Virus record (IMG/VR): IMGVR_UViG_3300049827_000271
Location: 10,404 to 74,403 of that record
Reading direction: 5' to 3' (one strand)
DNA length: 64,000 nt
Origin: a virus
Shown piece by piece: positions 287-61,600 of the stretch (positions are counted from its first letter, which is position 1; every line of letters begins with the position of its first letter). A program made the translations under genes and the position numbers. The notes beneath the pieces were generated by a model. The model saw nothing but the letters and a program-made list of their open reading frames with translations, did no database searches and was not told the origin of the DNA.

Positions 287-407
287 TACCCGCGCCGAGG
301 GTGCGCCCTAACCGTAAGGCTGGGCGGGGTCCATTTTCCAGGCGGTCAACGGTTGGCCGTCCAGGATTTTCTACCCGTGTATTCCCGAACGGCGCGGGTA
401 TCTCTTT
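287..407 (+). ncRNA. candidate structured RNA / regulatory multi-stem element
   Basis: Intergenic; 11-bp closing stem TACCCGCGCCG (287-297) / CGGCGCGGGTA (390-400) encloses a hairpin with a GTAA tetraloop and a second hairpin; followed by TCTCTTT. Confidence 0.4.
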
Positions 408-452
408 AACGCTCCGCATGAGAAATGCGGCACGAAAACCTGAAACAATAAT

Positions 453-809
453 ATGCTAAGTAAACAATCCAAAACCAATAGGCCAACCGCATTTCGCTAC
501 ATGCGGTTGTTAGGGCGACTCGTCAAACTATCTGAAGTCTTGAGACAGTGGGATTATGGATGGTCTGTGCATCTTAGAATAGACAAGGATGGTCCAAAAA
601 TCCATCTGTGCGATTCCGACGACGACTATGAAGGCAACGCCATGCGGCAGATACTTGAAGGCATCCAAAAGGAATGGCGCGACACCTACAGGAATCTGCC
701 AAAACCAAGAGAGGTGAACGACTACGACCGATATGACCTCTGCGAACAACGGAAAAACATCAAGGCGACTCTCGGCGAAGTAAAGCGCCGCCTCGCAAAG
801 TTGCGCTAA
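453..809 (+). CDS. hypothetical phage protein
   Basis: ATG after an A-rich leader, 118 aa, part of a tight operon. Confidence 0.6.
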   Translation: MLSKQSKTNRPTAFRYMRLLGRLVKLSEVLRQWDYGWSVHLRIDKDGPKIHLCDSDDDYEGNAMRQILEGIQKEWRDTYRNLPKPREVNDYDRYDLCEQRKNIKATLGEVKRRLAKLR

Positions 810-816
810 CAAAACT

Positions 817-2897: not shown

Positions 2898-5800
2898 TTA
2901 GCGCACTCCCGGAAGTCTGGCAACCGCACTCCGGCTCCTCCTCGCGGGGAGCCGGATTTTTTGCGTACCCGTCCGGCGTAATTTCGGCATTCTCACCGAG
3001 CGCACATGGGCCGCAGCCGCCGGACGGCGCGTGGGAATTCTGACCGACGACCGGCGTGAGGCGGGCATGGACATAGATGGCGTTGCGGAACGTCCAACGC
3101 CAGCCCTTGGCGCCGGCACGGAGACGCGGCCCACCGATGGGGCGCGCACGCCAAAGCTTGGACCAGCCGACGATCCGGCGCTGAGCGAAGGCAGGCGCAC
3201 TCCGCCAGCGTGCGGGCGCGGCAGTCCGCGGGCGCCGCCAAACGACATGCCTCCGCCCGTACCGCCCATGCGTCCCAGTCCGGTCGAAGTTTTTTCCTCC
3301 GACGGTTCCATGCTTGGAATAGAGGCTGATCCACCTCCCCCGCCTCCGGCAGAGCCGCGTTCCTGCCTGACAAATTCACGCGCTTGATGCCCGGTGGACT
3401 CGGCATAGGTGTTAAACGCCTCCTCCGCCTTCATCACCTCCGCGCGCTGGTCCGAGGACATCCGGCCCAAGATCGTCCCCCGCTCCTCCAAGGTGGGCGC
3501 TCTGCCCAGCACGGCCTGCCACGGATTACGTGACATAACCGAGGTGTCGAATGATTTTGCGGCGGCGTCATACTCGATGTTCCGCTTCTCCATGATCTTC
3601 TTGATCCCCCGTTCGCGCGCGTCCAGCATCCCCGTGGTATTCCCCAGCATCATCCAGTTCACCGCGTCCTGCGCCTCTGCCGATGTGATGGACGGACGGT
3701 AAGTTCCTCCGACTTGGGTGCGCTTGTCGATGTCCTGGCTGAATCTGTCGATGTTGGCTCGGGCATTCGAGTTCTCCACCATTCCTGCCTGTAGATCAGT
3801 GTGATTCAGGATCAGCTTGCTGTTCGGAACCCAACGTGATACCAGCCTGGCCATCTCCTGTGAGATGTCTCCGCCTTGGTAAAGCGTGCGCCATGCGCGC
3901 GGGATGTCATTGGCCATCTCCACCGCGAACAGGTTGATCCCGGTTCCGCCAAGGCCGCGGGACGGCTTGCTCACATCGAGTGCGCTGTTCAGGATTCCGG
4001 ACGACAATGGCAGGACGCTGCCGGCCATCAACATCATATACTTGAAGGCGTCCTCTGGATTCTCCGCATCCCACGCGCGGGGCGTCCGGTTGCGCGAACC
4101 ATAGACATACTCCGACAACCACGCGGCCATTGGCACAATCGCCAGACCGCCCAGCACGGAGGCGGTCAGCAGGTAGTCCGCAAACTTGGCCCCCGCTTTG
4201 ATTCCTGCCGCGCCGCGATTGCCTTTCGTGAAGATAGCGGACGTGCGCAGAATGTCCTCGTTCTGCCACAGCACCCAGTTCATCAGCGTCAGCGTGGACC
4301 GGCCCAAGCGGTTGCGCTGCGATAGGGTGGGGCGGTTGCTGAATCCGGATTTGCTCCGGGCTTGGGCCAGATCAAAGATGTATCGGTTCTCCTCCTCCTT
4401 GGTGAACAGGTTCTCCAATCCCGGATCGGCGGCGCGTTTGGAGCGCGCGTAGTAATCAAGGAAAGCGCGGTCGATGTTGATGTCACACCCCTGCATTCGC
4501 TTGCGGAATTGCAGTGCCTCATCCGGCTTGGCCCCGCGGCCCAACAATTCCGCCGGGGTCAGCACGGTTGTCTGCGGGTCCATTGGCAAACCCAGCGCCT
4601 CGCGGGCAGCCAGAACCTCGCGGGCGCGCATGGTCATGTCTTTGATGCGTCCATGCGCCTCCGAAACCGTGGCCAGCATGAGCAGGTTTTCCGAGTGCTT
4701 CATGCTCGTCAGTCCAACCCCTTGCAGGACATGCCAAGCTCCACGACCAACAGCAGTTGATGCCCTCCACAACCCTTTTGCAGATGCCAGGCGCAGGCTT
4801 GGATCAGCCTGCTGGTCCAAGATTCCTCCGCTGGCGAACCATGTGTCGATGTCGTTGCGCAGAAGTTCGCGCATGGTCCACTGGCTGGAGATGCCAAGCT
4901 CCTTGGCTCTACGCCATTCCAAGGCGGCCCGCGTGGCGGCACTGACAGACTTTCCGGTCATGGACGAAAGTTCATTCGCATTGGCCTCAATCGCCCGCTC
5001 AAAGTCGGGACCGAACTGCTTGCGCAGCGCGTCGTCACTCTTGATCACGGCGAGCAGCCCGCGCACCAACCGGCCTCCATGCTTGGTAAACTCCGCCGTG
5101 GCATACGCGGCCTTGCTCAACCCCCATACGCCAAACATCCACTTGCGGTGTTCGCCCATTGCCACTCCCTGCCGGTAGATGTCGATGGCTGGGGCCAGGA
5201 TATTCACCACTTGCGGTTTGATTGCGGCCAGGACCGCGGAGGCCGCCCTTCTGACCGCCCCGCCGAACGTTCGGGCCAACCTCGGCTCTAGCGGAGATTC
5301 CATCGACACGTAATCGCGGAGCGATTTCAGGTCCGAGTCGATCATCCGTTTGATCATCACGGCGTCCGCGTAATTCAGAAGACTCTCTCCATTCACCTGC
5401 TCTTCCCGCGTCTGCGCATTGGCCTTTTCCAAGCCCTTCGGAGATTGCGTCTCGTACCGGACATCCCAATCACCGATCTGCCTGCCCAAGCTGTCTCGCA
5501 GGTCGATCAGTGAATTTGCGTAGTTGACCAGATAGGTCTTGGTAATCCCCCAATCCAGCGCGTGGACAGAATTCTCGCTCGCCAGCGCATACTCATAGAA
5601 GTCGGGAGGCAGCGTGCCGGATTCGCGCGGTCTGGTCATAAACGAGCCTGCGCCCATGACCTCTGTGATCGGCCTCTCCCCCGGCTTGACCGATGGTGAT
5701 TCCAGTGGAAGCTCCCCCCTGGCCCCACGCAATAACTCATGCTCCAATCGTGATTTTACCTCATCGCGGGTCATCCAGTCCTTAGGGTCCGGGCGCGTCC

Positions 5801-8800
5801 GCACCTCGTCCACAATGGCGTCCAGGAGTCCGACGTAATTGGATGGCTCCGGCCTGCCGGCGTCGAATTGCCGGGCCAGGCTCAGGTATTCCATCACCAG
5901 CGGGGAACGCATGGCCATCCGGTAATGCTCGTGCTTGAACCCCCAGAGATGCGATAGCACACGATCCAGATGCTTCTCGATCACGGGCGCAAGCTGGCCA
6001 TTTTTGGCGGCGAGCGTTTGCAGGCTGAGCGCGTAATCGTTGGCTTCCGGGTTGATCCGTCTGGGCAACATGCCGCTCGTCAATTCCAGCGCCGGACGTT
6101 GCACGGTAATGCCGCCAATCTTCTCGGTGATCAATACTTCCGGGCGTCCGAACTTTTTCAGTTCCCGGCCCACCCCGGCCTTGGCCTTGTACAAGGCAAG
6201 CTCGGCCTGGACGGCGGCCATGTCCTCCGGAAGCACGGTGATACCTCGGTGGGCTTTTCCAACCGTGAGCGGCTGCCCGTGCGGATATGCCATGCTGTGG
6301 AGGATGGCGTTGCCAATCTGGTCCTCCCATTCCTGCGGGGAACGGAAGCCGTGGGCGCGCATGGCCTTGATCGTGGCTTTACGATTGCGCGTGGTCACAT
6401 TGCGCGACCCCGCCTTGCCACTGACGGCAGCGGTTTGTAATTGCTCAATAACCAAGTCCACGTCCCTGGCCGCGTTTGCCGCTTTCAACCCAAGCATGTT
6501 CCGCCCCAGCCACGGCGCGATCTCGCGCGTTTGTCCAAAGAGTTCCACCAAGTATCCTGGCAGCCATTTGGCAATACGCGAGCTTCCCTGTTCCGTCGCC
6601 AAAGCTTGGTGGGTCAGCCGCTCTTCCAATTCCTGCGCCCTCTCCCGGTAAAACGAGGCCCGCATAGGATCGCTCTCCGGGTTGTCCGCGTACTCACGAA
6701 ACCAGCGGGCGGCCTTGCGCGCGTTGTCCAAGTCCGCCTTCATCCCGGACTTGTCCCATCCCCCCGGCAGTGAAACGGTATCCTGCTGGCCCTTGGGCTG
6801 GTTTGGATTCTCCAAGATGCGGACACCTTCCAAGGTGTAGTCGGCTCCGCCCAGATTGGAGGTAATGCGACCTTTGTTAAATTCAGGATCGCTCTGCATC
6901 TGCCAAAACCCGAGCTCGGACTGGGCGCGCTGGTAGTTGCGCCAGAATTCCGTGCCCGGACTGAGCATGTTCGTCTTCAGAAAAGCCGCCGCGTCCTCAT
7001 GGGCCTTCAGCTTGTCTTGCAGCCTGACCGTTTCCTTGCTGGGAGCGCCCGCGCGAATCTGCTGCATCTGCTGCCAGAACGGCTGACTCTGGGACAGGAT
7101 GTATTTGACTCCAGCCGCAACATCGGTCCCCGTCTTGAATTTGTTGGCCAGCGCCCAAGCATCCCATCGGTTCACCAAGTCCGCCGTGGTGGACGGCCAG
7201 GTGGAGGCGTTCAATGTGTCAATGAATGCTCCGACCGTTTCCATGACCGTGTGTGATTTTGTCATGCCGTTCAGAATATCCAGCATGTGCTGCGCTTGGA
7301 TGGATGCCGGAGTCGGGCTGTTGGCGGCGGCGTTGACTACGTGTTGCAGGGCGGCCCTCTCTGAATCGCGCACATTGCGCACCCATGATCCGCCGTCCTT
7401 CGCGCGGTCGCTGGCGATGCTGTCACGAACCTTGCGAGTGTAATAGTCGATCTTGTCCGGGAGCTTGATCTGAGCAAAGTCCACCGCCAGCGCGGCGTTG
7501 GTCAGGAAGCTCTTCATTGACACGTTAAACACGTTTGGATTATCCGCCCCAAGAGCCGCGTTGCGCGCCTTTTCCACAATGTCCACGCCATGTGGGAGCG
7601 GCCTGCCGCCTGAGTTCAGGTAGGCGTTGTCAATCTCGCTTCGAGCCAGCGCGTGCGTTTCATGCAGGTACTTCATTCCGCGCAGGATGGACTTTACAGG
7701 GTCCGGCAATGCGTCGTAGAGCGGCTTGAGATACGCCATTGGCTCAATGGACAGCCAGGTGTCAACGCGCGACTCATACTTCTCGTTCTCGGTCCTGAAC
7801 GGATCGGTCATGGATTGCTGCTTCCACTGTCCGGGCGTGCGCGCCGCCTGTCGTGTAATCACATCGCCCGCCTGTTCCGGTCTGGTGTCTTGCACACGCA
7901 ACTCCGCCAGCTTCTCAGAGACAGCGCGGGCCGCCGCCCGTTCCGCCTTGCCCCGTGTCATCTGCTGGCCGGAGAACATGTCCATGACCCGGCTTACCAG
8001 CTTGCCAAACCAACTGCGCCCCTTCCATGCCTGGACCAGCGTGTCCACCCCGCGTGTGTCCAACTCCGCGCGATCCCCTGTCGTGTATCCTCTCTCGGCC
8101 ATGTCCGCCTTGATCTGGTCGATCTCTTCTGGCTTCAGCGTCTTCAACTCTTCGGCCAAACCCCCAAACTCCGTCACCGCATGGGCCGCCTCATGCTCCA
8201 GCGCGCGTGCCACGCTCTCCGCATCCGGCAGGTTCTTGGCGTTCAGCCTGACCTCCAGCACCTTTCCCGTCTTCGCGTCGATGTCCACCTGCGCGGACCA
8301 CGGCTCGTCGCTCTCTACGATCTTGATCAGTTCGGGAGATTTTCCACCGAAGACCTTGGCAGCCTCGGAGGCCACAAGATCAATCCCCATGCCTCGGCCA
8401 ATATCAGCGTCGGGAGCGATGGAATGACGAGTCACCAGACCGCCCGGCTTCATGCCAAGCCGTTCCGCCGTCTGCCGCACAGTGGCCGGCATGGTTCCCA
8501 CCACCTTCTCTCCATTGGGACCAACCCAAGTCTTGCCGAAAGGAATCTGCTCCGGGAGCGGGGGTGCCTGCGAGGCGAGCCATCGCTCGTACGCTGATAC
8601 CGCTTTCTGCTGTGGCTTCGTTTCCGCCGTCACGGGAACGGACGGCTCCGATTCTTTTCCAGCCAGTGCCAACTCCAAATTCCGCTTGGCCCGATTGAAC
8701 GCGATCAAGCTGTCGCCCGTGCGCGTCTCCTTCCACACCCGCTGCGTGCTCTCTACATCGTTACGGAGCTTGCTAAGTCGCTGCTGTTCGGTTGGGACGT

Positions 8801-11800
8801 GACGAGCGCGTTCATTGGCTGTTTCAATTCTGATGAACGCTCCAGTGGGGCGGCTTGTTTGGATTTCAACTCCCGGTCGGACTGCTCCGCCAGCAGGGAG
8901 TCCGCCAAGAGCCTTCTCGATACGCTCGAACTCATTGTATTTTTCGAGGATGGTTTGGGCAAAGTATTCTTTCTTGCCTTTGGTAGAGTGATAGGTTTCA
9001 TAAATATCGTCAGCCACAGATAGCACTACTCGCTCGGCCTCTGCATTGGTGCTTGCGCCTTCTTCTTGCAGTTTCAGGTTGACCAGATTTTTGACGGCGA
9101 AGATGAGGCGCTTAATCTCGCTTGGATCGGTCAACCCTCCAATCTGTTTTGGAAGCTGCTTGCGCTCAACCAAGCCATTCCGTTCGGACGCGAACACGCG
9201 GTCGAACTCCTCTCGGCTATTTCCAGCCGAAGGGCCGTAAGCCTTCATCAGCAGGTCAACCTCTTCCGGCATGGCCGGGCGAGCTTTTGTTCTTCTGAAT
9301 CCGTCGCCAACATCGTAAGCCGGATCATCCAAGACTGTCTCAACGTCAGCGATCTCACCTTCAGCCGAAGCATCCGTAGGCTGCTCAATAGCGCGCGTCA
9401 CCCTCGGCTGTTCCACCGCCTGCCCTTGCGCCTGCAACTCCTCGCGCTTGGCGTCGATCTTCTTGGCGAACTCCATGAACGCCGCCTCACTCTCAAACTT
9501 CTGGAGGAAACCGCGGCGCGGCTCGTCCAGGAGCATGGCGGCCATGAGCGTGTAGCGGTGCTTGCCGTTTTCCGGTCCTCCCTTGACCACGCGCTCGTCA
9601 TTGACAAACAGGTCGCGCCACTTGGAACTGTCCCTTGGGCTGCGCTCGCGCTCCGCCTCATTCTCAGTCGTGGTCTTCTTCCACTTGGCCGGGTCCACGA
9701 TCATCACGTCCGTTGCCTTCGGGTAGGCTCCAGCGACATAAACCGCTCCAGTCTGATTGTCCTTGAACACGGCGGTCATCCGTGTGGTCTTCGCGCTGAC
9801 GCCGCTCGTGCGGGCCATCCCGCCGAAAATCTTCGGCAGGTTAGGCGCGTCATCCTGGAGGTTGACACTGCGGAAGACCGGAACGTTACTGGCCCGCGCC
9901 ACCGCATCCATGATAGGCTGCGCCTGCTGGATCGTCTCATCCATCATCTGCTGGACGTGTTCTACGACTTCCTCCGCCTCCAAGTGATGCTTGTCCACGT
10001 ACGCATCCAGCGCCGCTTGGTCTTCTTTGGACAGCTTGCCGCGCTCGCTCGCGCGCAACAGCCCCTCCATGCGCGAGGCTTCCATGAACTGGTTGCCAAG
10101 CCGGTGCAGCCGTTCGTCGTTGGTGACATCCAGACCTGATTCGTCCGGCTGGCCCCGCTTGCTGAGTTTGCGATGTTTTTTCCAGATCAGGTCGTGCAAG
10201 ACCTGCGTGAAATTCTCACGACTCAACCGGACGGACTGACCGTTCTCATCTAGCGATCCTCGATACCACCCCAGATCGTTGACATCCAATTCTCCGGTGT
10301 CATTGCGGAACCGGCGGGCGTAGATCGGTTTGACGATGTGGTTGAACAACTCCGTCTGAAGCTTGCGGATGGACCATGCGCGCTCGGAGTAGGCTTCACG
10401 GTCTTTCCGGGTGTTCCGCTCGTCCTGCTTGGCGGCCTCGCGCGTGCGCTGGTCGCGTGCGAACCGCTCGGCAAATGCGAGGGACGGAGCAATTCTTTCG
10501 CGGGCCGCTGCGCGCTCCTCCTTGGTCATCTTCTTGGAGAACTCGACTTCGGGATGGACCAGCTTGTGGAGTTCCAAGCTGTCTTGGTAAATCTCTTTCT
10601 GCCGGTTTAGCAAATCGGTATCCCGTTTCACACGCTGTTCCAGCACGGAGCGCAGAACAGTGCGGGACTTGAGTTTCTGATTTTCCTCGCGCGCCAGTTC
10701 AAGCAGCTTTTCCTGCATCTCATGGAACGTGCTGGCGCTGTCCTTGGTTTCCACCGGGATTTCATCGCCGTTCTTTTTGGCTTCGTCGATCCTGGCTTTC
10801 TGCGTCAAGCGGGATTCTCCAAACGCGGCGGAAGCCCGCTTGATTTGTTCCACTTGCAGGCGCAGGCCCGCGCTTGTTCCGCGCGTCTTCTCGTCCAACT
10901 CCTTTTCCAGTTTGGACAGCTTTTGGGCCAGCGACTTCTCCTGTTTCGCATTCTCAGGATTGGTATTCTCGATCTCGGCAATCCGCTCTTGCAGTGCCGC
11001 CACTTCTTTGTCCAACTTCGCTGAAGAGCCTTCGGTCTGAATCTTTATCTTGGCTGCCGGCTCCGCGTGGATGACCCTTGAATCCTCTCCCTTGGCCGCC
11101 ATGTCATCCAAGAGCGACTTGTTGGAAGCAATCGCCTGTTCTTGGGCTTGGATTCCAAGCCCAATGCTTTCATGCCTAAAGCGTTCCAGTGGATCAGAGA
11201 GATCGAGCGCACCGCGCAGCATCAATTCCTGAGCCCGCGCAGTGGCGAATGTCTGCGGCTGAACGACGGCAAGCCGCGCCTCATCTTCTGGCGTTCGGTT
11301 CTTCTTATTGAATAGAAACTCAAATTCCCGCTCCACCGGAAGAGATGCCAGTAACTCCTGTATGCGCGCCCGGTCTTCGGGTGTCGGTTTTTTCTTGCGT
11401 GCCAATGTCCGCAACTCCTCAAGGTTCTCCTGCTCTCGCGTCTTCGGCTCCCAGTTTGTGGCCGCTAAATCTTTCAACTTCTCCCGATAGCCATGACCAA
11501 GCGCATCGCCAGCCACGTTGGCCTTCTGTGATTTTTCCGCCAACTGCTTACTGTCCAGTCCGGTGACGATCTCCGCAACCTTCTGCACAAACGCATCACG
11601 CGCGGTCAGCCAGTGGATCGGAATGTCCTTCTCCTTCAGATAAGTCGTGAACTGCTTGGGCTTGACCAAGTGCAGGTCGCGCTTGCGCGAGGACAGGAAA
11701 TCATGGGCGGCATCGAACACGCTCCGCTGGTAGTCCGGCTCCGGCGGCGGGGCAGGAACGGTCTTGACCCCAGGCGGAGGCAGGTCTGGGCTGGGAGATT

Positions 11801-13787
11801 CCTCCGCCTCTTCTACAGGCTTTGACTCCTCGGGTTTGGCGGCAGGCTCTGGCGTTATCGCGGCTTCAGTTTTTGGCGCCTCCACGGTGGGTGGCGCAGG
11901 CTTTTCTTCCTTCAGGCTGGAAACGGCAGGAGTTTCAGCCAATGCTGGCGCGGGCGCGGATGGGGCAGTCGGTACTTCAGGCTGTGTTTTCGGTGCGGTT
12001 GGAATTGAAATCCTAGCCTCCACCTTGGGCTGTGCTTCAAGTAGCGCGCTCGTTGTTGTCCCTGGGGAGGCTTGGGAAATTGGATACTTTACGCTCGTGG
12101 GAGCGGACGCAGATTCCTTCGAGATCAAAATCTTCTGCTCTGCCGTACGAAGTGCTGGCGGAGTTGATAGCGCTTCATGCAGAGCAGGATCGGCAATGCG
12201 TGGACGGCCAACTCTTGACACCTGGATAATCAACGGAGCCGATAGCGTGGCGACCGCCGGAGCTGGTTGCGCCAGCTTGATGTCATCAGGTGGTTGCAGG
12301 ACATCGGCTCCAAATGTGTAGAGTCCATCTTGCGTCTTGTTCAGAAGCCCTGAATCAACCAGTTGTTGCAGGCTGTCTTTCGGTTTGAATCCGATGATCT
12401 TTCGCACCGCCTCATCAGTGAACCATCCATCCGGAACAGACCCGGACTCCAGGATGCGCTGCCTAATCTCTGCCGCGGCATCCAGCGTGCTCAGAACTTC
12501 TTGGCCGGTATCCGCACGGGTTTTCGCTTCCCGACTCGCTGCGGAAGCTTCAGTCCCTTGCTCGACTGGTCCCACTCCTGGACGTTCACTCCCTGCTTCT
12601 GGAGCTTGCTCTGGTTGGTGTGAAAGTATCCCCTCTGTGCTGCGCTGACGTAAGGCATCTGGCTGCTCTCTTTCTGTTTGAAGTTGCTGCTCAAAATTAC
12701 CTAGCGCCCGAGAGCGCTTGGCGTAATCATCTACCTCGGATCGCAATTGCGCGATCACGTTTGGATCATACCTCCGCGGTGTGGTTGGAATCCTTGTTCC
12801 GCGTATGGCGTGCAGCGGCAAGGAGACTGCGTGCGGCCCGGCAAATAACGTGGACAACCCCAACATGCTCTCCGGAACACCTTCTCCAACAGGCTGTCCC
12901 TCAACGATATTTCCCGATCCTGTAGATGCAGCCCCAAGGATAGCCCCCTCCGCCGCCTTTGTTCCGGCCTCTGCAAGATCGCGCGTCAAATTAACAGAGC
13001 GTCTCGATGCAGCCGCTTCCACGCCTCTCTCCAACAAGCTCTTCGATGCGGAGTCCACCGCCTTTCCAACAAGCCTGTCTGCGTACTTCTTCATCACCGG
13101 AGGAAGCAGCGCCCAAACTGCGGCCTGCGTCATTCCTCCCGCGATGGCCTTGGCGATGACCTTGGAAGCCGCGGCCTCATCGGATAACCCGGACTCGCGA
13201 AGGGCGTCGAACTCTTCTTGGAAATCATGCGCGCCCACCGTTTGTGCGGCGATGGTAGCCGGAGCCGCCGGACCTGACATTACAATCGGGGCCAAGCCAA
13301 ATATGCCCTTCAAAGCCTGCCCAACTACAGGTTCACCTTCCCGCTCTGATGCCCATTCTTCGGCACGCTCGCCTTCTTTTGCGGCTATTCTTCCAGCCTG
13401 ATACAGCGGGTTCTTCTCCAGTGCGGCAGGTAACTGCTCTGGGTGCATTAGATATTTTGCAGTCTTGTCCCACCGACCTGTCAGGTATGGAAAGTATCCG
13501 CCTTCCTCAAGAACGGCAGCGCCTTTAGCCAAGGCGCCAATACCCCTTGCGGTTGCGCCAGCAATATCAGCAACCGCGCCCTTGAATGAAGGCAATAGCT
13601 CCTCGCCCTTTGATTCTGGGAATTGTTGCTCCGCCCATAGCTCAGCCCTTCGCCTCGCCGGCTCGAATGACCTGTCAAGCTCGGCGTCCGCAATCTCAAC
13701 CGGAGAAGTGTCTTCCCATTTTGGAACTGGCGCCTGACCTTGATCTACCGGAAGCGTGTCCTCCCATGCTGGGGCATTAGTCGGCAT
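2898..13787 (-). CDS. giant internal virion / DNA ejection protein (3629 aa) with a zincin-like HExxH motif
   Basis: Last gene of the virion operon; N-terminal PxWEDTxPV repeats, Pro/Glu-rich linker, coiled coils, LEHEAAH, basic R/S/P/G-rich tail. Confidence 0.7.
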   Translation of the reverse strand: MPTNAPAWEDTLPVDQGQAPVPKWEDTSPVEIADAELDRSFEPARRRAELWAEQQFPESKGEELLPSFKGAVADIAGATARGIGALAKGAAVLEEGGYFPYLTGRWDKTAKYLMHPEQLPAALEKNPLYQAGRIAAKEGERAEEWASEREGEPVVGQALKGIFGLAPIVMSGPAAPATIAAQTVGAHDFQEEFDALRESGLSDEAAASKVIAKAIAGGMTQAAVWALLPPVMKKYADRLVGKAVDSASKSLLERGVEAAASRRSVNLTRDLAEAGTKAAEGAILGAASTGSGNIVEGQPVGEGVPESMLGLSTLFAGPHAVSLPLHAIRGTRIPTTPRRYDPNVIAQLRSEVDDYAKRSRALGNFEQQLQTEREQPDALRQRSTEGILSHQPEQAPEAGSERPGVGPVEQGTEASAASREAKTRADTGQEVLSTLDAAAEIRQRILESGSVPDGWFTDEAVRKIIGFKPKDSLQQLVDSGLLNKTQDGLYTFGADVLQPPDDIKLAQPAPAVATLSAPLIIQVSRVGRPRIADPALHEALSTPPALRTAEQKILISKESASAPTSVKYPISQASPGTTTSALLEAQPKVEARISIPTAPKTQPEVPTAPSAPAPALAETPAVSSLKEEKPAPPTVEAPKTEAAITPEPAAKPEESKPVEEAEESPSPDLPPPGVKTVPAPPPEPDYQRSVFDAAHDFLSSRKRDLHLVKPKQFTTYLKEKDIPIHWLTARDAFVQKVAEIVTGLDSKQLAEKSQKANVAGDALGHGYREKLKDLAATNWEPKTREQENLEELRTLARKKKPTPEDRARIQELLASLPVEREFEFLFNKKNRTPEDEARLAVVQPQTFATARAQELMLRGALDLSDPLERFRHESIGLGIQAQEQAIASNKSLLDDMAAKGEDSRVIHAEPAAKIKIQTEGSSAKLDKEVAALQERIAEIENTNPENAKQEKSLAQKLSKLEKELDEKTRGTSAGLRLQVEQIKRASAAFGESRLTQKARIDEAKKNGDEIPVETKDSASTFHEMQEKLLELAREENQKLKSRTVLRSVLEQRVKRDTDLLNRQKEIYQDSLELHKLVHPEVEFSKKMTKEERAAARERIAPSLAFAERFARDQRTREAAKQDERNTRKDREAYSERAWSIRKLQTELFNHIVKPIYARRFRNDTGELDVNDLGWYRGSLDENGQSVRLSRENFTQVLHDLIWKKHRKLSKRGQPDESGLDVTNDERLHRLGNQFMEASRMEGLLRASERGKLSKEDQAALDAYVDKHHLEAEEVVEHVQQMMDETIQQAQPIMDAVARASNVPVFRSVNLQDDAPNLPKIFGGMARTSGVSAKTTRMTAVFKDNQTGAVYVAGAYPKATDVMIVDPAKWKKTTTENEAERERSPRDSSKWRDLFVNDERVVKGGPENGKHRYTLMAAMLLDEPRRGFLQKFESEAAFMEFAKKIDAKREELQAQGQAVEQPRVTRAIEQPTDASAEGEIADVETVLDDPAYDVGDGFRRTKARPAMPEEVDLLMKAYGPSAGNSREEFDRVFASERNGLVERKQLPKQIGGLTDPSEIKRLIFAVKNLVNLKLQEEGASTNAEAERVVLSVADDIYETYHSTKGKKEYFAQTILEKYNEFERIEKALGGLPAGGAVRPGVEIQTSRPTGAFIRIETANERARHVPTEQQRLSKLRNDVESTQRVWKETRTGDSLIAFNRAKRNLELALAGKESEPSVPVTAETKPQQKAVSAYERWLASQAPPLPEQIPFGKTWVGPNGEKVVGTMPATVRQTAERLGMKPGGLVTRHSIAPDADIGRGMGIDLVASEAAKVFGGKSPELIKIVESDEPWSAQVDIDAKTGKVLEVRLNAKNLPDAESVARALEHEAAHAVTEFGGLAEELKTLKPEEIDQIKADMAERGYTTGDRAELDTRGVDTLVQAWKGRSWFGKLVSRVMDMFSGQQMTRGKAERAAARAVSEKLAELRVQDTRPEQAGDVITRQAARTPGQWKQQSMTDPFRTENEKYESRVDTWLSIEPMAYLKPLYDALPDPVKSILRGMKYLHETHALARSEIDNAYLNSGGRPLPHGVDIVEKARNAALGADNPNVFNVSMKSFLTNAALAVDFAQIKLPDKIDYYTRKVRDSIASDRAKDGGSWVRNVRDSERAALQHVVNAAANSPTPASIQAQHMLDILNGMTKSHTVMETVGAFIDTLNASTWPSTTADLVNRWDAWALANKFKTGTDVAAGVKYILSQSQPFWQQMQQIRAGAPSKETVRLQDKLKAHEDAAAFLKTNMLSPGTEFWRNYQRAQSELGFWQMQSDPEFNKGRITSNLGGADYTLEGVRILENPNQPKGQQDTVSLPGGWDKSGMKADLDNARKAARWFREYADNPESDPMRASFYRERAQELEERLTHQALATEQGSSRIAKWLPGYLVELFGQTREIAPWLGRNMLGLKAANAARDVDLVIEQLQTAAVSGKAGSRNVTTRNRKATIKAMRAHGFRSPQEWEDQIGNAILHSMAYPHGQPLTVGKAHRGITVLPEDMAAVQAELALYKAKAGVGRELKKFGRPEVLITEKIGGITVQRPALELTSGMLPRRINPEANDYALSLQTLAAKNGQLAPVIEKHLDRVLSHLWGFKHEHYRMAMRSPLVMEYLSLARQFDAGRPEPSNYVGLLDAIVDEVRTRPDPKDWMTRDEVKSRLEHELLRGARGELPLESPSVKPGERPITEVMGAGSFMTRPRESGTLPPDFYEYALASENSVHALDWGITKTYLVNYANSLIDLRDSLGRQIGDWDVRYETQSPKGLEKANAQTREEQVNGESLLNYADAVMIKRMIDSDLKSLRDYVSMESPLEPRLARTFGGAVRRAASAVLAAIKPQVVNILAPAIDIYRQGVAMGEHRKWMFGVWGLSKAAYATAEFTKHGGRLVRGLLAVIKSDDALRKQFGPDFERAIEANANELSSMTGKSVSAATRAALEWRRAKELGISSQWTMRELLRNDIDTWFASGGILDQQADPSLRLASAKGLWRASTAVGRGAWHVLQGVGLTSMKHSENLLMLATVSEAHGRIKDMTMRAREVLAAREALGLPMDPQTTVLTPAELLGRGAKPDEALQFRKRMQGCDINIDRAFLDYYARSKRAADPGLENLFTKEEENRYIFDLAQARSKSGFSNRPTLSQRNRLGRSTLTLMNWVLWQNEDILRTSAIFTKGNRGAAGIKAGAKFADYLLTASVLGGLAIVPMAAWLSEYVYGSRNRTPRAWDAENPEDAFKYMMLMAGSVLPLSSGILNSALDVSKPSRGLGGTGINLFAVEMANDIPRAWRTLYQGGDISQEMARLVSRWVPNSKLILNHTDLQAGMVENSNARANIDRFSQDIDKRTQVGGTYRPSITSAEAQDAVNWMMLGNTTGMLDARERGIKKIMEKRNIEYDAAAKSFDTSVMSRNPWQAVLGRAPTLEERGTILGRMSSDQRAEVMKAEEAFNTYAESTGHQAREFVRQERGSAGGGGGGSASIPSMEPSEEKTSTGLGRMGGTGGGMSFGGARGLPRPHAGGVRLPSLSAGSSAGPSFGVRAPSVGRVSVPAPRAGVGRSATPSMSMPASRRSSVRIPTRRPAAAAHVRSVRMPKLRRTGTQKIRLPARRSRSAVARLPGVR
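12491..12658 (-). CDS. small basic protein nested out of frame in the giant gene
   Basis: MPYVSAAQRGYFHTNQSKLQKQGVNVQEWDQSSKGLKLPQRV resembles the small phage MP[FY]xSxAQR...EWD...LP proteins. Confidence 0.6.
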   Translation of the reverse strand: MPYVSAAQRGYFHTNQSKLQKQGVNVQEWDQSSKGLKLPQRVGKRKPVRIPAKKF

Positions 13788-37386: not shown

Positions 37387-38943
37387 ATGCCATTCGACAA
37401 ACAGGGCCGGCACTATCTGCCGGTATTTGAAAAACAACTGCGACTGATCAATTCCAGGAAGCGGTTTCGACTGGCCAGCGGCCCGCGACTGTGCGGCAAA
37501 ACCCTCGGCTGCTGCCATGCGGTGTTGCAACATTGCCGTTCGGTCAAGAACGCACGGTTCTGCATCTTGGGAAATACAGCCAGCCAGAATGCGGACGGCG
37601 GAGCATGGATGGACCTGACAGGCCCAGACGGGGTGATTGAGCAATGGGTTAATGATGGGCTGCTCAAGTGGAAGACCAAGCCGTGCATCAAGTCCGACAC
37701 CAAGAAGTGGCACTGCGAGGTTGAGGGCCCAAATGGAGTGGCCGACATTATTCTCGACAGTCTTCCGGTGGAGCGGGAAGTAAAATCAAGATTCTTCGGA
37801 CGCAAGTACACTGGAATCTGGGTCACGCAGATGGATCAAGTATTTACCACACGCGCTCCGTTCGACGTAATAACTGAGTGCCTGCGCGCCGGGCCGGAGG
37901 TGCGTGAGGACCAGTTTCTTTTCCTGGCCGACGTTAATCCTCCAGATGACGGAGTTGATTCATGGTTCTACAAGCTGTGGTTCGACTTTCCAGACTCTGA
38001 AATTCCAAAGGACATCCCTGAGATTCAACGCAAGGCAATGGAGGAATTGAAGACAAATTTGGAGGTCGTCACCTTCAGTATCGACGACAACATTTTCGTC
38101 ACCGACGCGCGCAAGCGGGTGCTCTACAGCAATCTCTGCCACGACCAGAACCTGCTCGACCGATTTTACTACGGCAAGTACGTGAGGGCGAGCGCCACCG
38201 GATTCTTCAAGGAGGTGTGGGTGCCAGCGGTTCACCGGGTTGGCGAAATCGCGGTCACAAAATCACTGGACGAGCGGATGCTCCCAGAAAAGAACTGCCA
38301 TCTCCTGATCACCGGAAATGACATTGGGAGCGTCAACCCGGCCATTGTCTTCATCGAGCCGTGGGACATCGGGATCGACGGCGACCAGAAGTGGGCGTTC
38401 AAGGTCTTGGATGAACTGATCATCCAGAAAACACAAACACCGCTATCCGACTTGGTTGAGATGATGATGGACAAGATGGACGCCTTGGAAGAACTGGTGA
38501 GAAAAATGAACAAGGCGGACAAGCTGGAGGGTGCTCCGAAAATCATGTGGCGCCATTTCTCGGATACAAGTTCATTCGACAGGTACGACAACATTGCCGA
38601 TACCTTCGAGTGGCGGGAAATTTACCGACTGAGTGAAGGGAGAATTGAGTTCGAGGCGGTGGACAAGTCACATGGGCAGATCAACCGGCATGTCACAATG
38701 ATCAAACGACTACTCTTCCAGAATCGGCTGTTCACCGATGCTCACTGTGAATATGTATTGCGCATGTTCGGCAATCTTGCGCCCAATAAACACGGAAGGA
38801 TGACCAATACTGACCCGGACAAGCACGCCTTCGACGCTCTGCGTTACGCCATCGCCGGCTTATGCTATGAGGAGCTTCAGCTTGGAGACATACCAACAGT
38901 TGGACCCATCACTCAACCGACCGTGCTGACAACATCTCTTTGA
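37387..38943 (+). CDS. terL: terminase large subunit
   Basis: Walker A SGPRLCGKT, DVNP coupling motif, SIDDN, nuclease motifs GNDIG, DEL, HAFDALRY. Confidence 0.88.
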   Translation: MPFDKQGRHYLPVFEKQLRLINSRKRFRLASGPRLCGKTLGCCHAVLQHCRSVKNARFCILGNTASQNADGGAWMDLTGPDGVIEQWVNDGLLKWKTKPCIKSDTKKWHCEVEGPNGVADIILDSLPVEREVKSRFFGRKYTGIWVTQMDQVFTTRAPFDVITECLRAGPEVREDQFLFLADVNPPDDGVDSWFYKLWFDFPDSEIPKDIPEIQRKAMEELKTNLEVVTFSIDDNIFVTDARKRVLYSNLCHDQNLLDRFYYGKYVRASATGFFKEVWVPAVHRVGEIAVTKSLDERMLPEKNCHLLITGNDIGSVNPAIVFIEPWDIGIDGDQKWAFKVLDELIIQKTQTPLSDLVEMMMDKMDALEELVRKMNKADKLEGAPKIMWRHFSDTSSFDRYDNIADTFEWREIYRLSEGRIEFEAVDKSHGQINRHVTMIKRLLFQNRLFTDAHCEYVLRMFGNLAPNKHGRMTNTDPDKHAFDALRYAIAGLCYEELQLGDIPTVGPITQPTVLTTSL

Positions 38944-51608: not shown

Positions 51609-51826
51609 AATCAAAAATAACACAAAAAGACGGACTGAAACTCTCAACGGCTCTCGACGCGCTCGCGCTCGCGCTGGCCGGTCACAAGCACAAATGGACT
51701 GCAAAACAACGGTCTGCTTACGAGCGTGCCGTGTCGGTGCTCGGCAAAACCTTCGCAGGTGAAGTGCCGCCGCCACGGCGGCGCAATACTCAGGAACACC
51801 GGAGACTTTATTCCGAACGACCATGA
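51605..51826 (+). CDS. hypothetical protein
   Basis: ATGA overlaps; 3' end lies in a degenerate attC-like site. Confidence 0.55.
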   Translation: MKSKITQKDGLKLSTALDALALALAGHKHKWTAKQRSAYERAVSVLGKTFAGEVPPPRRRNTQEHRRLYSERP

Positions 51827-51896
51827 CAACCGAATCACCGAAACCGTCCGACGAAGCCAAAGCGGGGGCACTACTGCCTCCAGCGATGGGTTCAAC
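51744..51896 (-). other. degenerate attC-like site
   Basis: Good left arm GTTGAAC-CCATC-GCTGGAGGCAGTAGTGCC; eroded right arm GGCACTTCACCTGC...GTTTTGC. Confidence 0.45.
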
Positions 51897-52038
51897 CAAC
51901 TACAACTCACGCCAAGAGACAAACGAACACATCCTGCGCGTGCGCGAACTCGGTTGGTCGGCCGCCCAAGCTCAGCGACGGCAGCCGACAGCGCCGCCGC
52001 GAGCGCAAAAGAAAGGAAAAAATCACGATGATCTCTGA
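51823..52038 (+). CDS. cassette-borne hypothetical protein
   Basis: Both termini are encoded by attC-like arms. Confidence 0.5.
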   Translation: MTTESPKPSDEAKAGALLPPAMGSTNYNSRQETNEHILRVRELGWSAAQAQRRQPTAPPRAQKKGKNHDDL

Positions 52039-52080
52039 ACGTAAAGCGTGGCTGCCGTTCGCTGAAGTGCATAGTTCGGC
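51957..52080 (-). other. attC-like site with a mutated R' core
   Basis: GCCGAAC-TATGC-ACT(T)CAGCGA(A)CGGCAGCC ... GGCTGCCGTCGCTGAGC-TTGGGC-GGCCGAC. Confidence 0.75.
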
Positions 52081-52309
52081 GACCTGCTGCCTGTGCAACT
52101 GGACAAACGTAAACCTCTTAAACCTAGGAGAACCCGGAGCACCGCGATGGACGTGCCACGGCTGCTGCAAGCGAATGCTCGATACACTGGAGAAACTCCG
52201 AGAAGGAGACTTCGCTGGCACGCCAATCAATCGCGGCAGTTCTGCGATGCTGCTCATAGATGAAACGCTGTCGTCTAACAAAGAACAGGCCGCACTGCGT
52301 ACACCATGA
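52028..52309 (+). CDS. cassette-borne small Zn-finger-like protein
   Basis: CCLC...CHGC; SD AAAGGA and ATG lie inside the attC loop. Confidence 0.6.
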   Translation: MISERKAWLPFAEVHSSATCCLCNWTNVNLLNLGEPGAPRWTCHGCCKRMLDTLEKLREGDFAGTPINRGSSAMLLIDETLSSNKEQAALRTP

Positions 52310-55722: not shown

Positions 55723-56190
55723 ATGTGCGACCATAATTCTCCTGCTGAACCCATCTCCGCGGCCTGCCCGGCGCCCTCTGACAGCACCGCTGGAGACTTC
55801 AAACTCCCCCTGGCAAACGCGCCGTGTTTCTTGGCCGGGGTGAATCAGACCGCGCCGCTCCGTCCGGGGGACGAAGAGAGTAGTGGGGCACACTCCACTC
55901 TTGCCCCCGGCGGCGCGGCGCAAGCTGAAAGAATCGAATGGATTGACTTGCTCATCGTTCCGCAGGACGTGGACCGCGTGCGTATTTCCGAGATGATCCG
56001 TGAAGTTGGAGGAGTGCTCTCATGGCATGATGAAGACATGCGCGCCGGATTGCCGCTCAATGCTGCGGTGGGCGCTTTTCCAGGAAGAGCCGATGATGTT
56101 CGCAGCACGATGCTGAAGCTACGCGGACACAACGACCCAAGCTCTGCCACATGGCGGGGCGGAAAGGACTCCAAATGCAAAGTGAACTGA
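55723..56190 (+). CDS. hypothetical protein whose C-terminus is encoded by an attC-like arm
   Basis: Ends ...GHN-DPSSATWRGGKDSKCKVN inside the 56127-56227 site. Confidence 0.5.
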   Translation: MCDHNSPAEPISAACPAPSDSTAGDFKLPLANAPCFLAGVNQTAPLRPGDEESSGAHSTLAPGGAAQAERIEWIDLLIVPQDVDRVRISEMIREVGGVLSWHDEDMRAGLPLNAAVGAFPGRADDVRSTMLKLRGHNDPSSATWRGGKDSKCKVN

Positions 56191-56227
56191 ATCGCCCCGC
56201 CATGTCGGCAGCAGCGCATGGTTTGGC
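56127..56227 (-). other. attC-like recombination site
   Basis: GCCAAAC-CATGC-GCT(G)CTGCC(G)ACATGGCGGGGCG ... CGCCCCGCCATGTGGCAGAGC-TTGGGTC-GTTGTGT. Confidence 0.85.
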
Positions 56228-56588
56228 AAAAAACCCACATGACTCAATGACGGCATGGGATAGAAGCTGGAAACCTCACCATCTTCCAATGTGGGCGAGA
56301 AAATCTATCCGACTGGATGCGATAAAAAAAGACAACTGGCGTGCCTATCCAGGATGGCCAGTCAACAACCATGCCGAGGCACACCTTCCGCACGAACTGT
56401 TTGACCATTGGGGCAGCGTAAAGCGCGGTAAAACACGCGCACTCATAGCGCAACCCTATGGCGAACATGATGCACTCGCGAAATCATTCGCATCCGAACT
56501 CGGATGGTCAGTCAAATCTTTCACGCCCGGCCCGTGGAATGATGGAACGTGGTGCTACGAGTTTTTGCCGAACAATGCGCAATCCTAA
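56175..56588 (+). CDS. cassette-borne hypothetical protein
   Basis: SD AAAGGA and ATG in the attC loop; FDHWG...QPY...PW motif; ends LPN-NAQS. Confidence 0.7.
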   Translation: MQSELNRPAMSAAAHGLAKNPHDSMTAWDRSWKPHHLPMWARKSIRLDAIKKDNWRAYPGWPVNNHAEAHLPHELFDHWGSVKRGKTRALIAQPYGEHDALAKSFASELGWSVKSFTPGPWNDGTWCYEFLPNNAQS

Positions 56589-59371: not shown

Positions 59372-60037
59372 CTAGTTGGGCCACTTGGCGCACGTCGCAG
59401 CCAATTCGAGCAGGTAGTGCGCAAACGCGGGAGGTGTGGCGTTTGCCTCACGCTTTGAGAGTGTCGGTTTGTTTGCGGCCTTTCCGCGCTGGTCGTGGAA
59501 GCCGACTTGGTGCGAGCCGGTTGGCCGCTCCCATCGAGGTTGAAGTGGCGCATCCGTGCCGGAGCAGTAGAGCCACGTCCGCTTGTTCGCTCGATGGCCG
59601 TAGGCCGATTGCCAGACTTCGCAGACCAATCCTTGCTTCCATCGCGTTCATCCAGTTGCCGGACGCGGCAGGCCGTGCGCTGGCCATGCGTAGGTTTCTG
59701 CTGGATGTTCCAGCACACCGCCGCAGCGGTTCACGGTATCAAGCGCGAAGCGGAAGCATCCGCCATCGTTGCCCGGCTTGTTGTGTTCGCCGCCCCATCG
59801 CAGGTAGTTTATCTTCGCCATCTTTCCCCACAGTTGGCAGGGAGGATGCGCCACGACCGGCGCGTTGCCGGTGTAGGTCATCGCGTCACGCTCTGCATCG
59901 TAGCAGTCGCAGCCTAGCGACTTGTAGAGAGAGTCTTTCATCACAAACAACACGACGTGGCCCAACCATGCGCTGCTGCCAATGAGTGCCGCGTCGGGCA
60001 TCACTGTCGATTGAACGTCTTGGGTCGCGGCACTCAT
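59372..60037 (-). pseudogene. cassette-borne C5-cytosine methyltransferase-like gene with an in-frame TGA
   Basis: VAHPPC and VLEHP motifs; track ORFs 59648-60076 and 59372-59629 share a frame and are split by one TGA (59648-59650). Confidence 0.65.
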
Positions 60038-60058
60038 GGCAGAGCTTGGTCGTTCGGT
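59960..60058 (+). other. attC-like recombination site 1
   Basis: GCCCAAC-CATGC-GCT(G)CTGCC(A)ATGAGTGCCGCG ... CGCGGCACTCATGGCAGAGC-TTGGTC-GTTCGGT. Confidence 0.88.
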
Positions 60059-60312
60059 GGACCACACTTGTCGCATCGGACTTCGCCGTTATAGCGGAGG
60101 ATGTGCTCAAAGGAGTGCGTCTCCTTTTCTTCCGGCGTCACCCAGATTGTCCACGCTTCGCCATTGCACAGTTTGCAGTTCAGAGGGCCGTATAGTTCTC
60201 CAAATGTCACCGGGACATGCGTGCTTGAGCGTGGTTGCATCAACGAGGCCACCGAACAACCGGATGCAGACAACCCCGCCATTGCGCCTTGTTCGAGTTC
60301 AAGAGTCTTCAT
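60034..60312 (-). CDS. cassette-borne Zn-ribbon-like protein
   Basis: CKLC...CDKC; starts in attC2 and stops in attC1. Confidence 0.6.
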   Translation of the reverse strand: MKTLELEQGAMAGLSASGCSVASLMQPRSSTHVPVTFGELYGPLNCKLCNGEAWTIWVTPEEKETHSFEHILRYNGEVRCDKCGPPNDQALP

Positions 60313-60342
60313 GGGGGGGGTGTCTGATCCGGAGCGTTAGGC
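60251..60342 (+). other. attC-like recombination site 2
   Basis: ACCGAAC-AACCG-GAT(G)CAGACA(A)CCCC ... GGGGTGTCTGATC-CGGAGC-GTTAGGC. Confidence 0.88.
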
Positions 60343-60636
60343 ATCTAGGCCATCTTTCTTCATGGCGGCATCAACCGCATCGCGGTATGTGTCGCCCCAG
60401 CACGTTGTCCCGTCGCTGGCCATCACGAGGAATGGCGCTTCCTTCACGTTCTCGCGCTGGTGGGTTTCTTCGAGCCAGCACAGGTAGTCGAAGCAGTCAG
60501 CTTTATACATCATCTCCTGCGTCATCATCGCGCACAGGCGGGTTGCTAGTTGGTCGTCGGAGAGCTTTGACGCCGCCGAGCCACTGCATGGAGCAGAACC
60601 CGGCGGAGCGTCAGGCTGTTGAGAGTCACTTGGCAT
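60337..60636 (-). CDS. cassette-borne hypothetical protein
   Basis: SD AAAGGA and ATG in the attC3 loop; C-terminal TYRDAVDAAM motif; TAA stop lies in the attC2 core. Confidence 0.65.
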   Translation of the reverse strand: MPSDSQQPDAPPGSAPCSGSAASKLSDDQLATRLCAMMTQEMMYKADCFDYLCWLEETHQRENVKEAPFLVMASDGTTCWGDTYRDAVDAAMKKDGLDA

Positions 60637-60686
60637 TGGTATCCTTTCGGGTTGTCGCGCCGGGTCGCTCATGCAGGCCGTTAGGA
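60575..60686 (+). other. attC-like recombination site 3
   Basis: GCCGAGC-CACTG-CAT(G)GAGC(A)GA(A)CCCGGCG ... CGCCGGGTCGCTCATG-CAGGCC-GTTAGGA. Confidence 0.8.
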
Positions 60687-61195
60687 GAATAGAGCGCGCT
60701 CACCTTGCTTGGTGGGTGGACGCCTTTACCGAAGTCCAGCGCGAGAGCGACGAGCCACGGCAGATTGCCGATGGTCTTTTCTTCGCCGCCCGCTATCGCC
60801 TTCGATGACACCACTTCGATTTGTTCGGACTCCATTGATGTCAGTTTGTGCGGCTCGCCGATGGTGTAGAAGAACTCGACCTCAAAACTTCCGCCGTCGT
60901 TATTTGTTCCTGACATTGAGCAGAAGTGCGTCCAGTCGGAAGGCCACAGTCCGGCTTCTTCGCCGAACTCTCGGCACATGGCGTTGATTGCTTCTTCGCC
61001 GGCTTCGACCTTGCCGCCGATGCCGTTGAGCAGCCCGGCTTGCCACGCTGGTTTGTTTTTGCGGATTAACGCGACGTTCGACATGGCCACATCGAACATG
61101 AAGCCGACCACATATTTGGTTTGGCCCGATTCTCCTAGCAAGTCGCTGGAGGCAACGGCGGGTTTGCGTTGCTCGATTGTCTTTGGTGCATTCAT
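60626..61195 (-). CDS. cassette-borne NUDIX hydrolase
   Basis: Nudix box GGKVEAGEEAINAMCREFGEEAGL. Confidence 0.92.
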   Translation of the reverse strand: MNAPKTIEQRKPAVASSDLLGESGQTKYVVGFMFDVAMSNVALIRKNKPAWQAGLLNGIGGKVEAGEEAINAMCREFGEEAGLWPSDWTHFCSMSGTNNDGGSFEVEFFYTIGEPHKLTSMESEQIEVVSSKAIAGGEEKTIGNLPWLVALALDFGKGVHPPSKVSALYSPNGLHERPGATTRKDTNAK

Positions 61196-61238
61196 ACGTT
61201 TTGGTTGTTCTCGCCGTGCCTCAGCTTAATCGTCAGAT
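61133..61238 (+). other. attC-like recombination site 4
   Basis: TCCTAGC-AAGTC-GCT(G)GAGGCA(A)CGGCG ... CGCCGTGCCTCAGC-TTAATC-GTCAGAT. Confidence 0.8.
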
Positions 61239-61294: not shown

Positions 61295-61600
61295 TCATGG
61301 TTTCCTTTCCGCTCCACCGTTTCCGCCGGAGCGGGCAGGGGGAGCTTTATCGTTTGGCTTACTCCGCCGCCATCCAGCGGGGCCGCTTGATCCCCCCCTA
61401 TTTTTAGACCGATGCAGGAACGCCTCACACACTGTCAGCCGGATATAAACTTGCTCGCAGTCGAGGCATATTGCCCGCCTCCACACGCCTGGCGCGTCTG
61501 TGTATTTGTAGCTAGAACAGACCGGGCAACGTCCGTCCGTGGAAGCCAGCCTGCCCGACGGTTCCCGTCTGGCTGGAGCGGGTGAAGGTTTATGGCTCAT
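61295..61600 (-). CDS. small Zn-ribbon protein
   Basis: CPVC...CLDC; ends PN-DKAPP in an attC right-arm remnant. Confidence 0.5.
   Translation of the reverse strand: MSHKPSPAPARREPSGRLASTDGRCPVCSSYKYTDAPGVWRRAICLDCEQVYIRLTVCEAFLHRSKNRGGSSGPAGWRRSKPNDKAPPARSGGNGGAERKP

Follow-up and report, generated by a model that had tools for sequence, protein, structure and literature searches.

A 64,000-nucleotide stretch of phage DNA, hereafter the window, covers bases 10404-74403 of the IMG/VR record IMGVR_UViG_3300049827_000271, a 74.4-kb sequence rated 97% complete, and carries between its positions 59375 and 61238 an array of four single-gene cassettes, each bounded by a hairpin of the type that integrons use as attC recombination sites, with every cassette gene on the strand opposite to the one expected from its site. 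The array lies at the 3' end of a leftward operon of a tailed phage, whose genes include a large terminase (37387-38943), a virion protein, RecT, exonuclease VIII and a primase; the phage is probably temperate, its host probably belongs to the Verrucomicrobiota, and the source sample is probably a freshwater sediment metagenome. The sole recombinase in the record is a tyrosine recombinase of 388 amino acids (window 1475-2641), and a TIGR02249 search of the whole 74-kb record for an integron integrase returned no match. In window coordinates, and with the unpaired bases of the sites in square brackets, the array is composed as follows.

59375..59384, plus strand: left border, a bare core GTTGGGCCAC without a hairpin to its left; putative crossover between G 59375 and T 59376
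59376..60052, plus strand: cassette 1, 677 bp, from the TT of the start core to the G of the site 1 R' box
60053..60336, plus strand: cassette 2, 284 bp
60337..60680, plus strand: cassette 3, 344 bp
60681..61232, plus strand: cassette 4, 552 bp
Right border, plus strand: the R' box of site 4, without a complementary partner
59960..60058, plus strand: attC-type site 1 (GCCCAAC, 5 nt, GCT[G]CTGC, CA, [A], stem-loop, TG, GCAGAGC, 6 nt, GTTCGGT)
60251..60342, plus strand: attC-type site 2 (ACCGAAC, 5 nt, GAT[G]CAGA, CA, [A], stem-loop, TG, TCTGATC, 6 nt, GTTAGGC)
60575..60686, plus strand: attC-type site 3 (GCCGAGC, 5 nt, CAT[G]GAGC, stem with two unpaired A, long loop, GCTCATG, 6 nt, GTTAGGA)
61133..61238, plus strand: attC-type site 4 (TCCTAGC, 5 nt, GCT[G]GAGG, CA, [A], stem-loop, TG, CCTCAGC, 6 nt, GTCAGAT)
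59372..60037, minus strand: gene A, phrog_12600, now two open reading frames (ORFs), 59941->59648 and 59629->59372
60034..60312, minus strand: gene B, a small CxxC (zinc-ribbon-like) protein without a family match
60337..60672, minus strand: gene C, hypothetical
60626..61195, minus strand: NUDIX hydrolase gene (Pfam 3e-06)

The four hairpins had been called from the letters alone in an earlier, sequence-only reading of this DNA, and all of them are found where it placed them, with the full plus-strand layout of an attC site in four out of four. Each site opens with a 7-nt R'' box (ending in AAC in sites 1 and 2 and in AGC in sites 3 and 4), a 5-nt spacer and an 8-nt L'' box, whose fourth base, a G on the plus strand, is unpaired throughout while the L box pairs 7/7 in every site; further inward follow 2 bp, an unpaired A, a stem and loop, 2 bp and a 7-nt L' box, and the site closes with a 6-nt spacer and an R' box that starts with GTT (GTC in site 4), the asymmetric 5/6-nt spacers being present in 4/4. 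The segment between the unpaired A and the 2 bp that precede L' comprises 51-71 nt, 28-50 nt of them unpaired, and site 3 carries one additional unpaired A. Total site lengths are 92-112 bp; attC sites in general measure about 57-141 bp and have a variable terminal structure. The AAC...GTT core triplets of the R'' and R' boxes of attC sites are present in sites 1 and 2, with AGC/GTT in site 3 and AGC/GTC in site 4; nearly all of the 59 sites of the wider family described below carry AAC/GTT.

The same layout, with the extra bases on the AAC arm, can be read directly on the gene sense strand of the aadA1 attC of plasmid R100. Nivina et al. 2016 (PMC5027507) describe the unpaired bases on the AAC-bearing arm as marking the attC top strand, with the outer two 6 bp apart, an L'' base that on the bottom strand is usually G, and a distal unpaired base that is a conserved T on the bottom strand; the phage sites agree with this description in the positions of the unpaired bases, the 6-bp spacing and the distal bottom-strand T. 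Judged on folding energy only, hairpins 1 and 2 are exceptional (z -2.1 to -3.5), whereas the long loops of hairpins 3 and 4 leave these two at z about 0.

The cargo genes are all antisense to the attC-type sites, as the sequence-only reading had stated. Gene A matches phrog_12600 on the minus strand (7.7e-35 and 2.6e-20), the NUDIX match lies on the same strand, and for genes B and C the open minus frames show a coding pattern of GC content over the three codon positions (0.54/0.46/0.65 in cassette 2 and 0.58/0.41/0.75 in cassette 3), the open plus frames of these two cassettes displaying the inverse, or shadow, pattern. The arrangement of a classical cassette, with an ORF on the attC top strand that ends before or in R'', is therefore absent, since 4/4 ORFs occupy the bottom strand. 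One functional assignment of the earlier reading lacks support: gene A, there described as methyltransferase-like, has no Pfam or NCBIfam match, even when searched with the intact, 199-amino-acid homologue from Ralstonia phage PQ43W, and belongs to phrog_12600, whose function is unassigned. That homologue, the sole blastn match of our phage among cultured phages, is not accompanied by hairpins.

A strict pattern scan of both strands of the 74-kb record returned sites 1, 2 and 4 only, and the same scan over 100 Markov-1 simulated genomes returned 2 matches in total. We further trained a covariance model, R1, on six of the phage's sites, taking the plus strand of the array as the modelled strand, and found that it matches canonical attC sites of class 1 integrons, namely those of aadA1 (39.6 bits), cmlA5 (46.1 bits) and aadB (35.1 bits). 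The aadA1 site is the only R1 match in 50 kb of R100, the other two lie in two other class 1 integrons, and each stands directly 3' of its gene and on the gene's sense strand, so that the strand was called correctly in 3/3; across 87 kb of plasmid DNA, nothing beyond these three sites scored above 10 bits. Gathering and permissive searches of the phage sites against Rfam, whose inclusion of an attC model is uncertain, retrieved nothing attC-like.

Sequence reading together with R1 reveals at least three further cassettes in the same phage, at 56.1-56.6, 51.7-52.3 and 0.4-0.8 kb of the window:

56127..56573, top strand minus: solo cassette with site 5 (56227->56127) and a bare core GTTCGGC at 56573
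51744..52279, minus strand: decaying pair, with site 6 (52080->51957) carrying an R' mutated to GGCCGAC and an eroded second site (51896->51744)
404..810, minus strand: solo cassette 7, with a G|TT core at 810|809 and a site at 515->404 (25.5 bits)

The arms of site 5 are almost identical to those of site 1. Here too the sites are antisense to the local genes, which brings the count for this phage to 7/7: a plus-strand gene (56151..56588) opposes the solo cassette with site 5, the genes local to the decaying pair are on the plus strand, and a plus-strand gene (453..809) starts in the loop of the cassette 7 site and takes its TAA stop from the core. The solo cassette at 56127-56573 sits near the 3' end of another plus-strand gene (55723..56190), the tail of which now enters the hairpin. 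Next to the main array, a small hairpin (61304-61339) within window positions 61295-61360 is followed by GTTTGGC, and the gene 61295..61600 crosses CCAAAC in frame (..KP-N); this may mark an eroded fifth site (about 61300-61359) that would extend the array rightward, but we did not retain it, as it has neither a model match nor a partner core.

The sequence-only reading had also proposed that the start of each unit is complementary to its own R'' region, as left behind by circles that integrate through crossover at G|TT. The footprint itself is borne out: the matches amount to 10/10, 10/11, 6/11 and 10/11 for units 1-4, the value for unit 1 being that of the left-border core against the site 1 R'' flank (59957-59966), and the same footprint recurs in 8 arrays of other contigs. 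When the 11 nt that end in the C of R'' were compared for 36 units from 8 arrays, R'' matched the start of its own cassette at a mean of 9.4/11, versus 6.4/11 for the R' of the same site and 6.5/11 for other R' boxes, in agreement with the hybrid R' expected of attC cassettes.

As evidence of polarity, however, flank complementarity stands only in part: the complementarity itself is there, but the orientation of the cassettes inside the array does not follow from it alone, because it is expected inside an array whichever core served as the crossover point. The polarity is instead set by the asymmetry of the hairpins, the ends of the array and the solo cassettes. The array begins at the left with a bare GTT core that lacks a hairpin (59375) and ends at the right with a full hairpin whose R' is unmatched (61232), and the solo cassettes, read along their top strand, have a bare GTT core upstream and a hairpin downstream; together with the hairpin asymmetry, this places the crossover at R', as in integrons. 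The converse minus-strand reading, in which each gene would be followed by its own site and crossover would occur at R'', conflicts with all three lines of evidence and was discarded.

With the gene on the bottom strand of its attC-type site, the hairpin precedes the gene in the mRNA, and the hairpins do hold stop and start signals. For gene A, candidate starts lie at 60037 (where an ATGA also contains the gene B stop), 60001 (within the loop) and 59941, and its TAG stop (59372-59374) falls just beyond the cassette edge. Gene B starts at 60312 or 60282, within site 2, crosses the core as ..PP-N and terminates at a TGA (60034-60036) in the arm of site 1, where it overlaps one of the candidate starts of gene A. 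Gene C probably begins at an ATG (60636) within the site 3 loop, preceded at a distance of 6 nt by AAAGGA, and takes its TAA stop from the TTA of the G|TTAGGC core. The site 4 loop contains the ATG (61195) at which the NUDIX gene starts; this gene reads through the core as ..SP-N and terminates within site 3 at 60626, having run 11 nt beyond the probable gene C start.

Similar signals recur across the family. In a bottom-strand alignment of the subfamily of sites 1 and 5, a Shine-Dalgarno motif and an ATG occupy the loop or the base of the stem, and an ATGA overlap with the upstream stop is frequent. In-site ATG or GTG codons that open an ORF of at least 70 amino acids are found on the bottom strand of 50/59 sites, versus 21/59 on the top strand, and at 36 of 44 junctions the ORF arriving from upstream reads the AAC of the core in frame, a count that leaves out ORFs ending on the TAA of a TAAC core, such as gene C and gene 453..809. 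With such a fixed phase of core crossing, any order of cassettes would yield a translatable operon, and the arrangement suggests that the hairpins may couple the translation of adjacent genes.

The sites have relatives in other viruses. A 17-nt word common to sites 1 and 5 is present in ten IMG/VR contigs, in which R1 finds 28 sites, and the similarity between phages is limited to the sites themselves (R'' to R', 73-82% identity), the cargo being unrelated. One relative, a 59.7-kb contig with terminase and portal genes (G001), has a single protein in common with the phage studied here and carries at least 16 sites on one strand, with an integrase at the end of the array that scores 230 bits on TIGR02249 and aligns with IntI1 at 35% identity across 285 residues, with four gaps, the alignment extending through the IntI-specific insert. 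Its cargo genes, again opposite to the sites, include two N6_N4_Mtase, a Methyltransf_24 and a PAPS_reduct gene. In a second, 52-kb relative (L055), 11 sites lie directly upstream of a member of the same integrase clade on one unbroken contig. About 69 protein clusters are at least 45% identical to the G001 integrase, and named integron integrases reach 38% at most. In both contigs intI has its usual placement, at the attI end and opposite in strand to the attC top strand; only the cargo is flipped, with the consequence that the cassette genes and intI share one direction of transcription. Altogether, cargo is antisense in all 9 family-supported cassettes across four records.

The attI-proximal cassette of G001 (L017 170-430; L019 19463-19560) is only about 250 bp long, has a 30-codon ORF as its sole frame and is a near-copy of a cassette at the far end of the contig; a core, GTTAGGAC, lies about 35 nt before the start of intI.

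A gapped version of the site pattern matched three genomes, all of them Verrucomicrobiota metagenome-assembled genomes (MAGs), two of which contain an IntI above the family cut-off. Contigs of these MAGs hold more arrays with antisense cargo, including DUF5131 (1.9e-83), HNH and CoiA genes. In one of the two MAGs with an IntI, of Verrucomicrobiales (G007; L045 16385-16830), a chromosomal-type IntI (411 bits, 49% identical to IntI1) is followed by a GTTAGGC core and then by a sense-strand ORF with a signal-peptide-like start, which corresponds to the normal cassette orientation. This single case hints that the mirrored layout is a property of phage-linked cassettes rather than of the host phylum.

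The array, whose four sites share one strand within 1.3 kb in a record without an integron integrase, conforms to a CALIN (cluster of attC sites lacking integron integrases), defined by at least two attC sites in a row. The intI and attI of a complete integron are not found beside it, and the left flank of the array shows no similarity, such as an attI remnant might have, to the intI-proximal regions of three phage integrons (G001, L055 and L056). We consider with good confidence that the region is best explained overall as a CALIN of a mirrored, phage-associated integron variant. In the mechanism we envisage, each cassette would once have been a circle that entered by single-strand crossover at the G|TT of an attC-type hairpin, as the footprint suggests, and the mirrored family would carry its genes on the attC bottom strand, such that a hairpin could supply the stop for the upstream gene and, in many sites, also the Shine-Dalgarno motif and start codon of its own gene. 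As the phage lacks an IntI, movement would need an integrase in trans, supplied either by an integron of the host or by a co-infecting phage whose integron belongs to the separate IntI clade. That the array starts at a bare core without an attI-like flank fits insertion at a secondary site. The shuffling of phage genes through attC recombination, which the sequence-only reading had put forward, is thus a predicted activity that agrees with the unrelated cargo in unrelated phages, the arrays beside an IntI-clade integrase in two phage contigs and the solo cassettes.

In a broader model, which we favour with rather less assurance, these elements would form a distinct lineage of phage-associated integrons that has an IntI clade to itself and cassettes in mirror image, in which the attC hairpin doubles as recombination site and frame-locked stop/start linker, and through which genes are shuffled among phages, and perhaps their Verrucomicrobiota hosts, while operon translation stays intact; the phage described here, with about eight cassettes in four places, would be a recipient.

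Several observations weigh against the interpretation of the region as a mirrored CALIN. The unpaired L'' base of the bottom strand is C in sites 1-4, where the usual attC has G; the cores depart from the usual triplets, R'' ending in AGC instead of AAC in sites 3 and 4 and R' starting with GTC in site 4; the flank match of unit 3 is weak (6/11); and gene A is broken between 59629 and 59648 by a frameshift or small deletion, with about nine residues absent at the break relative to the PQ43W homologue, and may be a pseudogene or an assembly error. Given the altered cores, the weak flank and the broken gene, the array may be partly fossil. R1, for its part, missed arr-2, ereA and one copy of aadA1, which puts its sensitivity at about half, and it matched no site in phage TJE1, whose attC sites are published; its matches at the phage loci are moreover not independent of the family, because it was trained on it. 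In addition, two protein-based scans of viral contigs found no close relative of the phage able to show gain or loss at the cores, and no joints, circles or empty sites were seen in the two public runs that hold the stretch, of which contigs only were covered and the uncovered parts are uninformative. One of these two runs is probably the source sample.

Such signs of decay bear directly on a rival account, in which the cassettes did arrive by attC recombination and the hairpins, now immobile fossils, persist solely as stop/start linkers at the RNA level. The absence of an IntI from the record, the degraded core triplets, the frameshifted gene A and the decayed pair at 51.7-52.3 kb all point that way, and the fixed reading phase and in-site start codons suggest selection at the level of translation; yet sites 1 and 2, like solo site 5, have remained intact, their L boxes pairing perfectly and their flanks matching at 10/10 to 12/13, and an integrase could act in trans, given the IntI genes above the cut-off in 2/3 of the MAGs that carry the site family. 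We therefore regard wholly fossil cassettes as improbable. Still less likely, in our estimate, is that the cassettes are moved by the 388-amino-acid recombinase at 1475-2641 in place of an IntI. It is the only recombinase in the record and is encoded about 1 kb downstream of solo cassette 7, on the strand opposite to the site and in the same sense as the cassette's gene, an orientation that intI also has in G001 and L055, but it has no match at all to the IntI family, is only weakly Xer-like (2e-07), aligns with IntI1 at a BLASTP E of only 0.012 with the IntI insert absent, and resembles an ordinary lysogeny integrase.

That the hairpins are ordinary intergenic terminators or repeats with a chance likeness to attC can hardly be sustained. 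Hairpins 3 and 4 have free energies no better than shuffled sequence, and the silence of Rfam, whatever its attC content, would be expected under such a view; the full architecture in 4/4 hairpins, the 2 matches in 100 simulated genomes, the reciprocal recovery of real attC sites by R1, the hybrid R' footprint over 36 units and the linkage of the family to IntI-clade genes speak against it. A CALIN of mirrored cassettes remains our preferred description of the region.

Two further observations concern the phage and its occurrence. An initial guess that it is N4-like, prompted by an ORF of 3629 amino acids, was abandoned, since this ORF has no family match and terminase, RecT, exonuclease, primase and integrase genes are present; the ORF (window 2898-13787, no Pfam match) heads a minus-strand block of virion genes and has glycosyltransferase, VWA-domain protein and metallophosphatase genes as neighbours. 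In run X2, a second freshwater metagenome that belongs to a different study, two 151-nt contigs are identical to the phage (window 58731-59101), and a further piece matches gene A at 87% identity and continues into a GCCCAAC core whose spacer differs; the phage or a near relative may be present there.

The integron rule is gene first and hairpin after, under one promoter; here, the same site occurs reversed, in phages, and would double as a portable translation start. If active, the system would allow site-specific swapping of accessory and likely anti-defence genes of phages (methylases, NUDIX hydrolases, nucleases), link the evolution of phages to the integrons of their hosts and account for some of the mosaicism of phage genomes at the level of single genes, and it offers a direct experimental handle on the connection between strand choice and cassette expression. 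Phage CALINs as such are already known, and it is the mirrored layout that appears new: neither mirrored cassettes nor a phage IntI clade turned up in a literature survey of incomplete coverage.

Among phage systems, the PeSLs of T4-type phages, units of a promoter and a stem-loop, are exchanged by homologous recombination. As in the array described here, they shuffle phage accessory genes as small modules bounded by stem-loops with expression signals; unlike it, they do not rely on attC-type sites with G|TT crossover. The nearest precedent is the set of CALINs that Qi et al. 2023 (Front Microbiol, PMC9892861) reported in virulent phages and showed to be recombined by IntI1. Both sets consist of attC rows with single-gene cassettes in phages without intI and carry accessory-type cargo, with DNA methylases found in the phages of that study and in the relatives identified here. 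The arrays of Qi et al. are said to 'resemble bacterial arrays', and antisense cargo is not mentioned; in ours, by contrast, every gene is antisense, starts in the hairpin and crosses the core in a fixed phase, a contrast drawn from the published description, since R1 matched no site in TJE1. Insertion of integron cassettes outside att sites, at attG sites, is described for normal sense cassettes in bacterial genomes in a preprint (bioRxiv 10.1101/2022.09.11.507474). Insertion of the attG type could explain both the solo cassettes and the start of the array at a bare GTT core that lacks attI-like sequence.

Classical cassettes carry their ORF on the attC top strand and are read from Pc outward from attI. 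The mirrored cassettes share with classical integrons the attC architecture, the G|TT footprint and, in G001 and L055, the strand and position of intI, and differ from them in the bottom-strand location of their ORFs, the unpaired L'' base C and the membership of the associated IntI in a separate clade. Unlike those of classical integrons, moreover, the ORFs of G001 and L055 are read toward intI as one operon, such that new cassettes would enter at the promoter-distal end.

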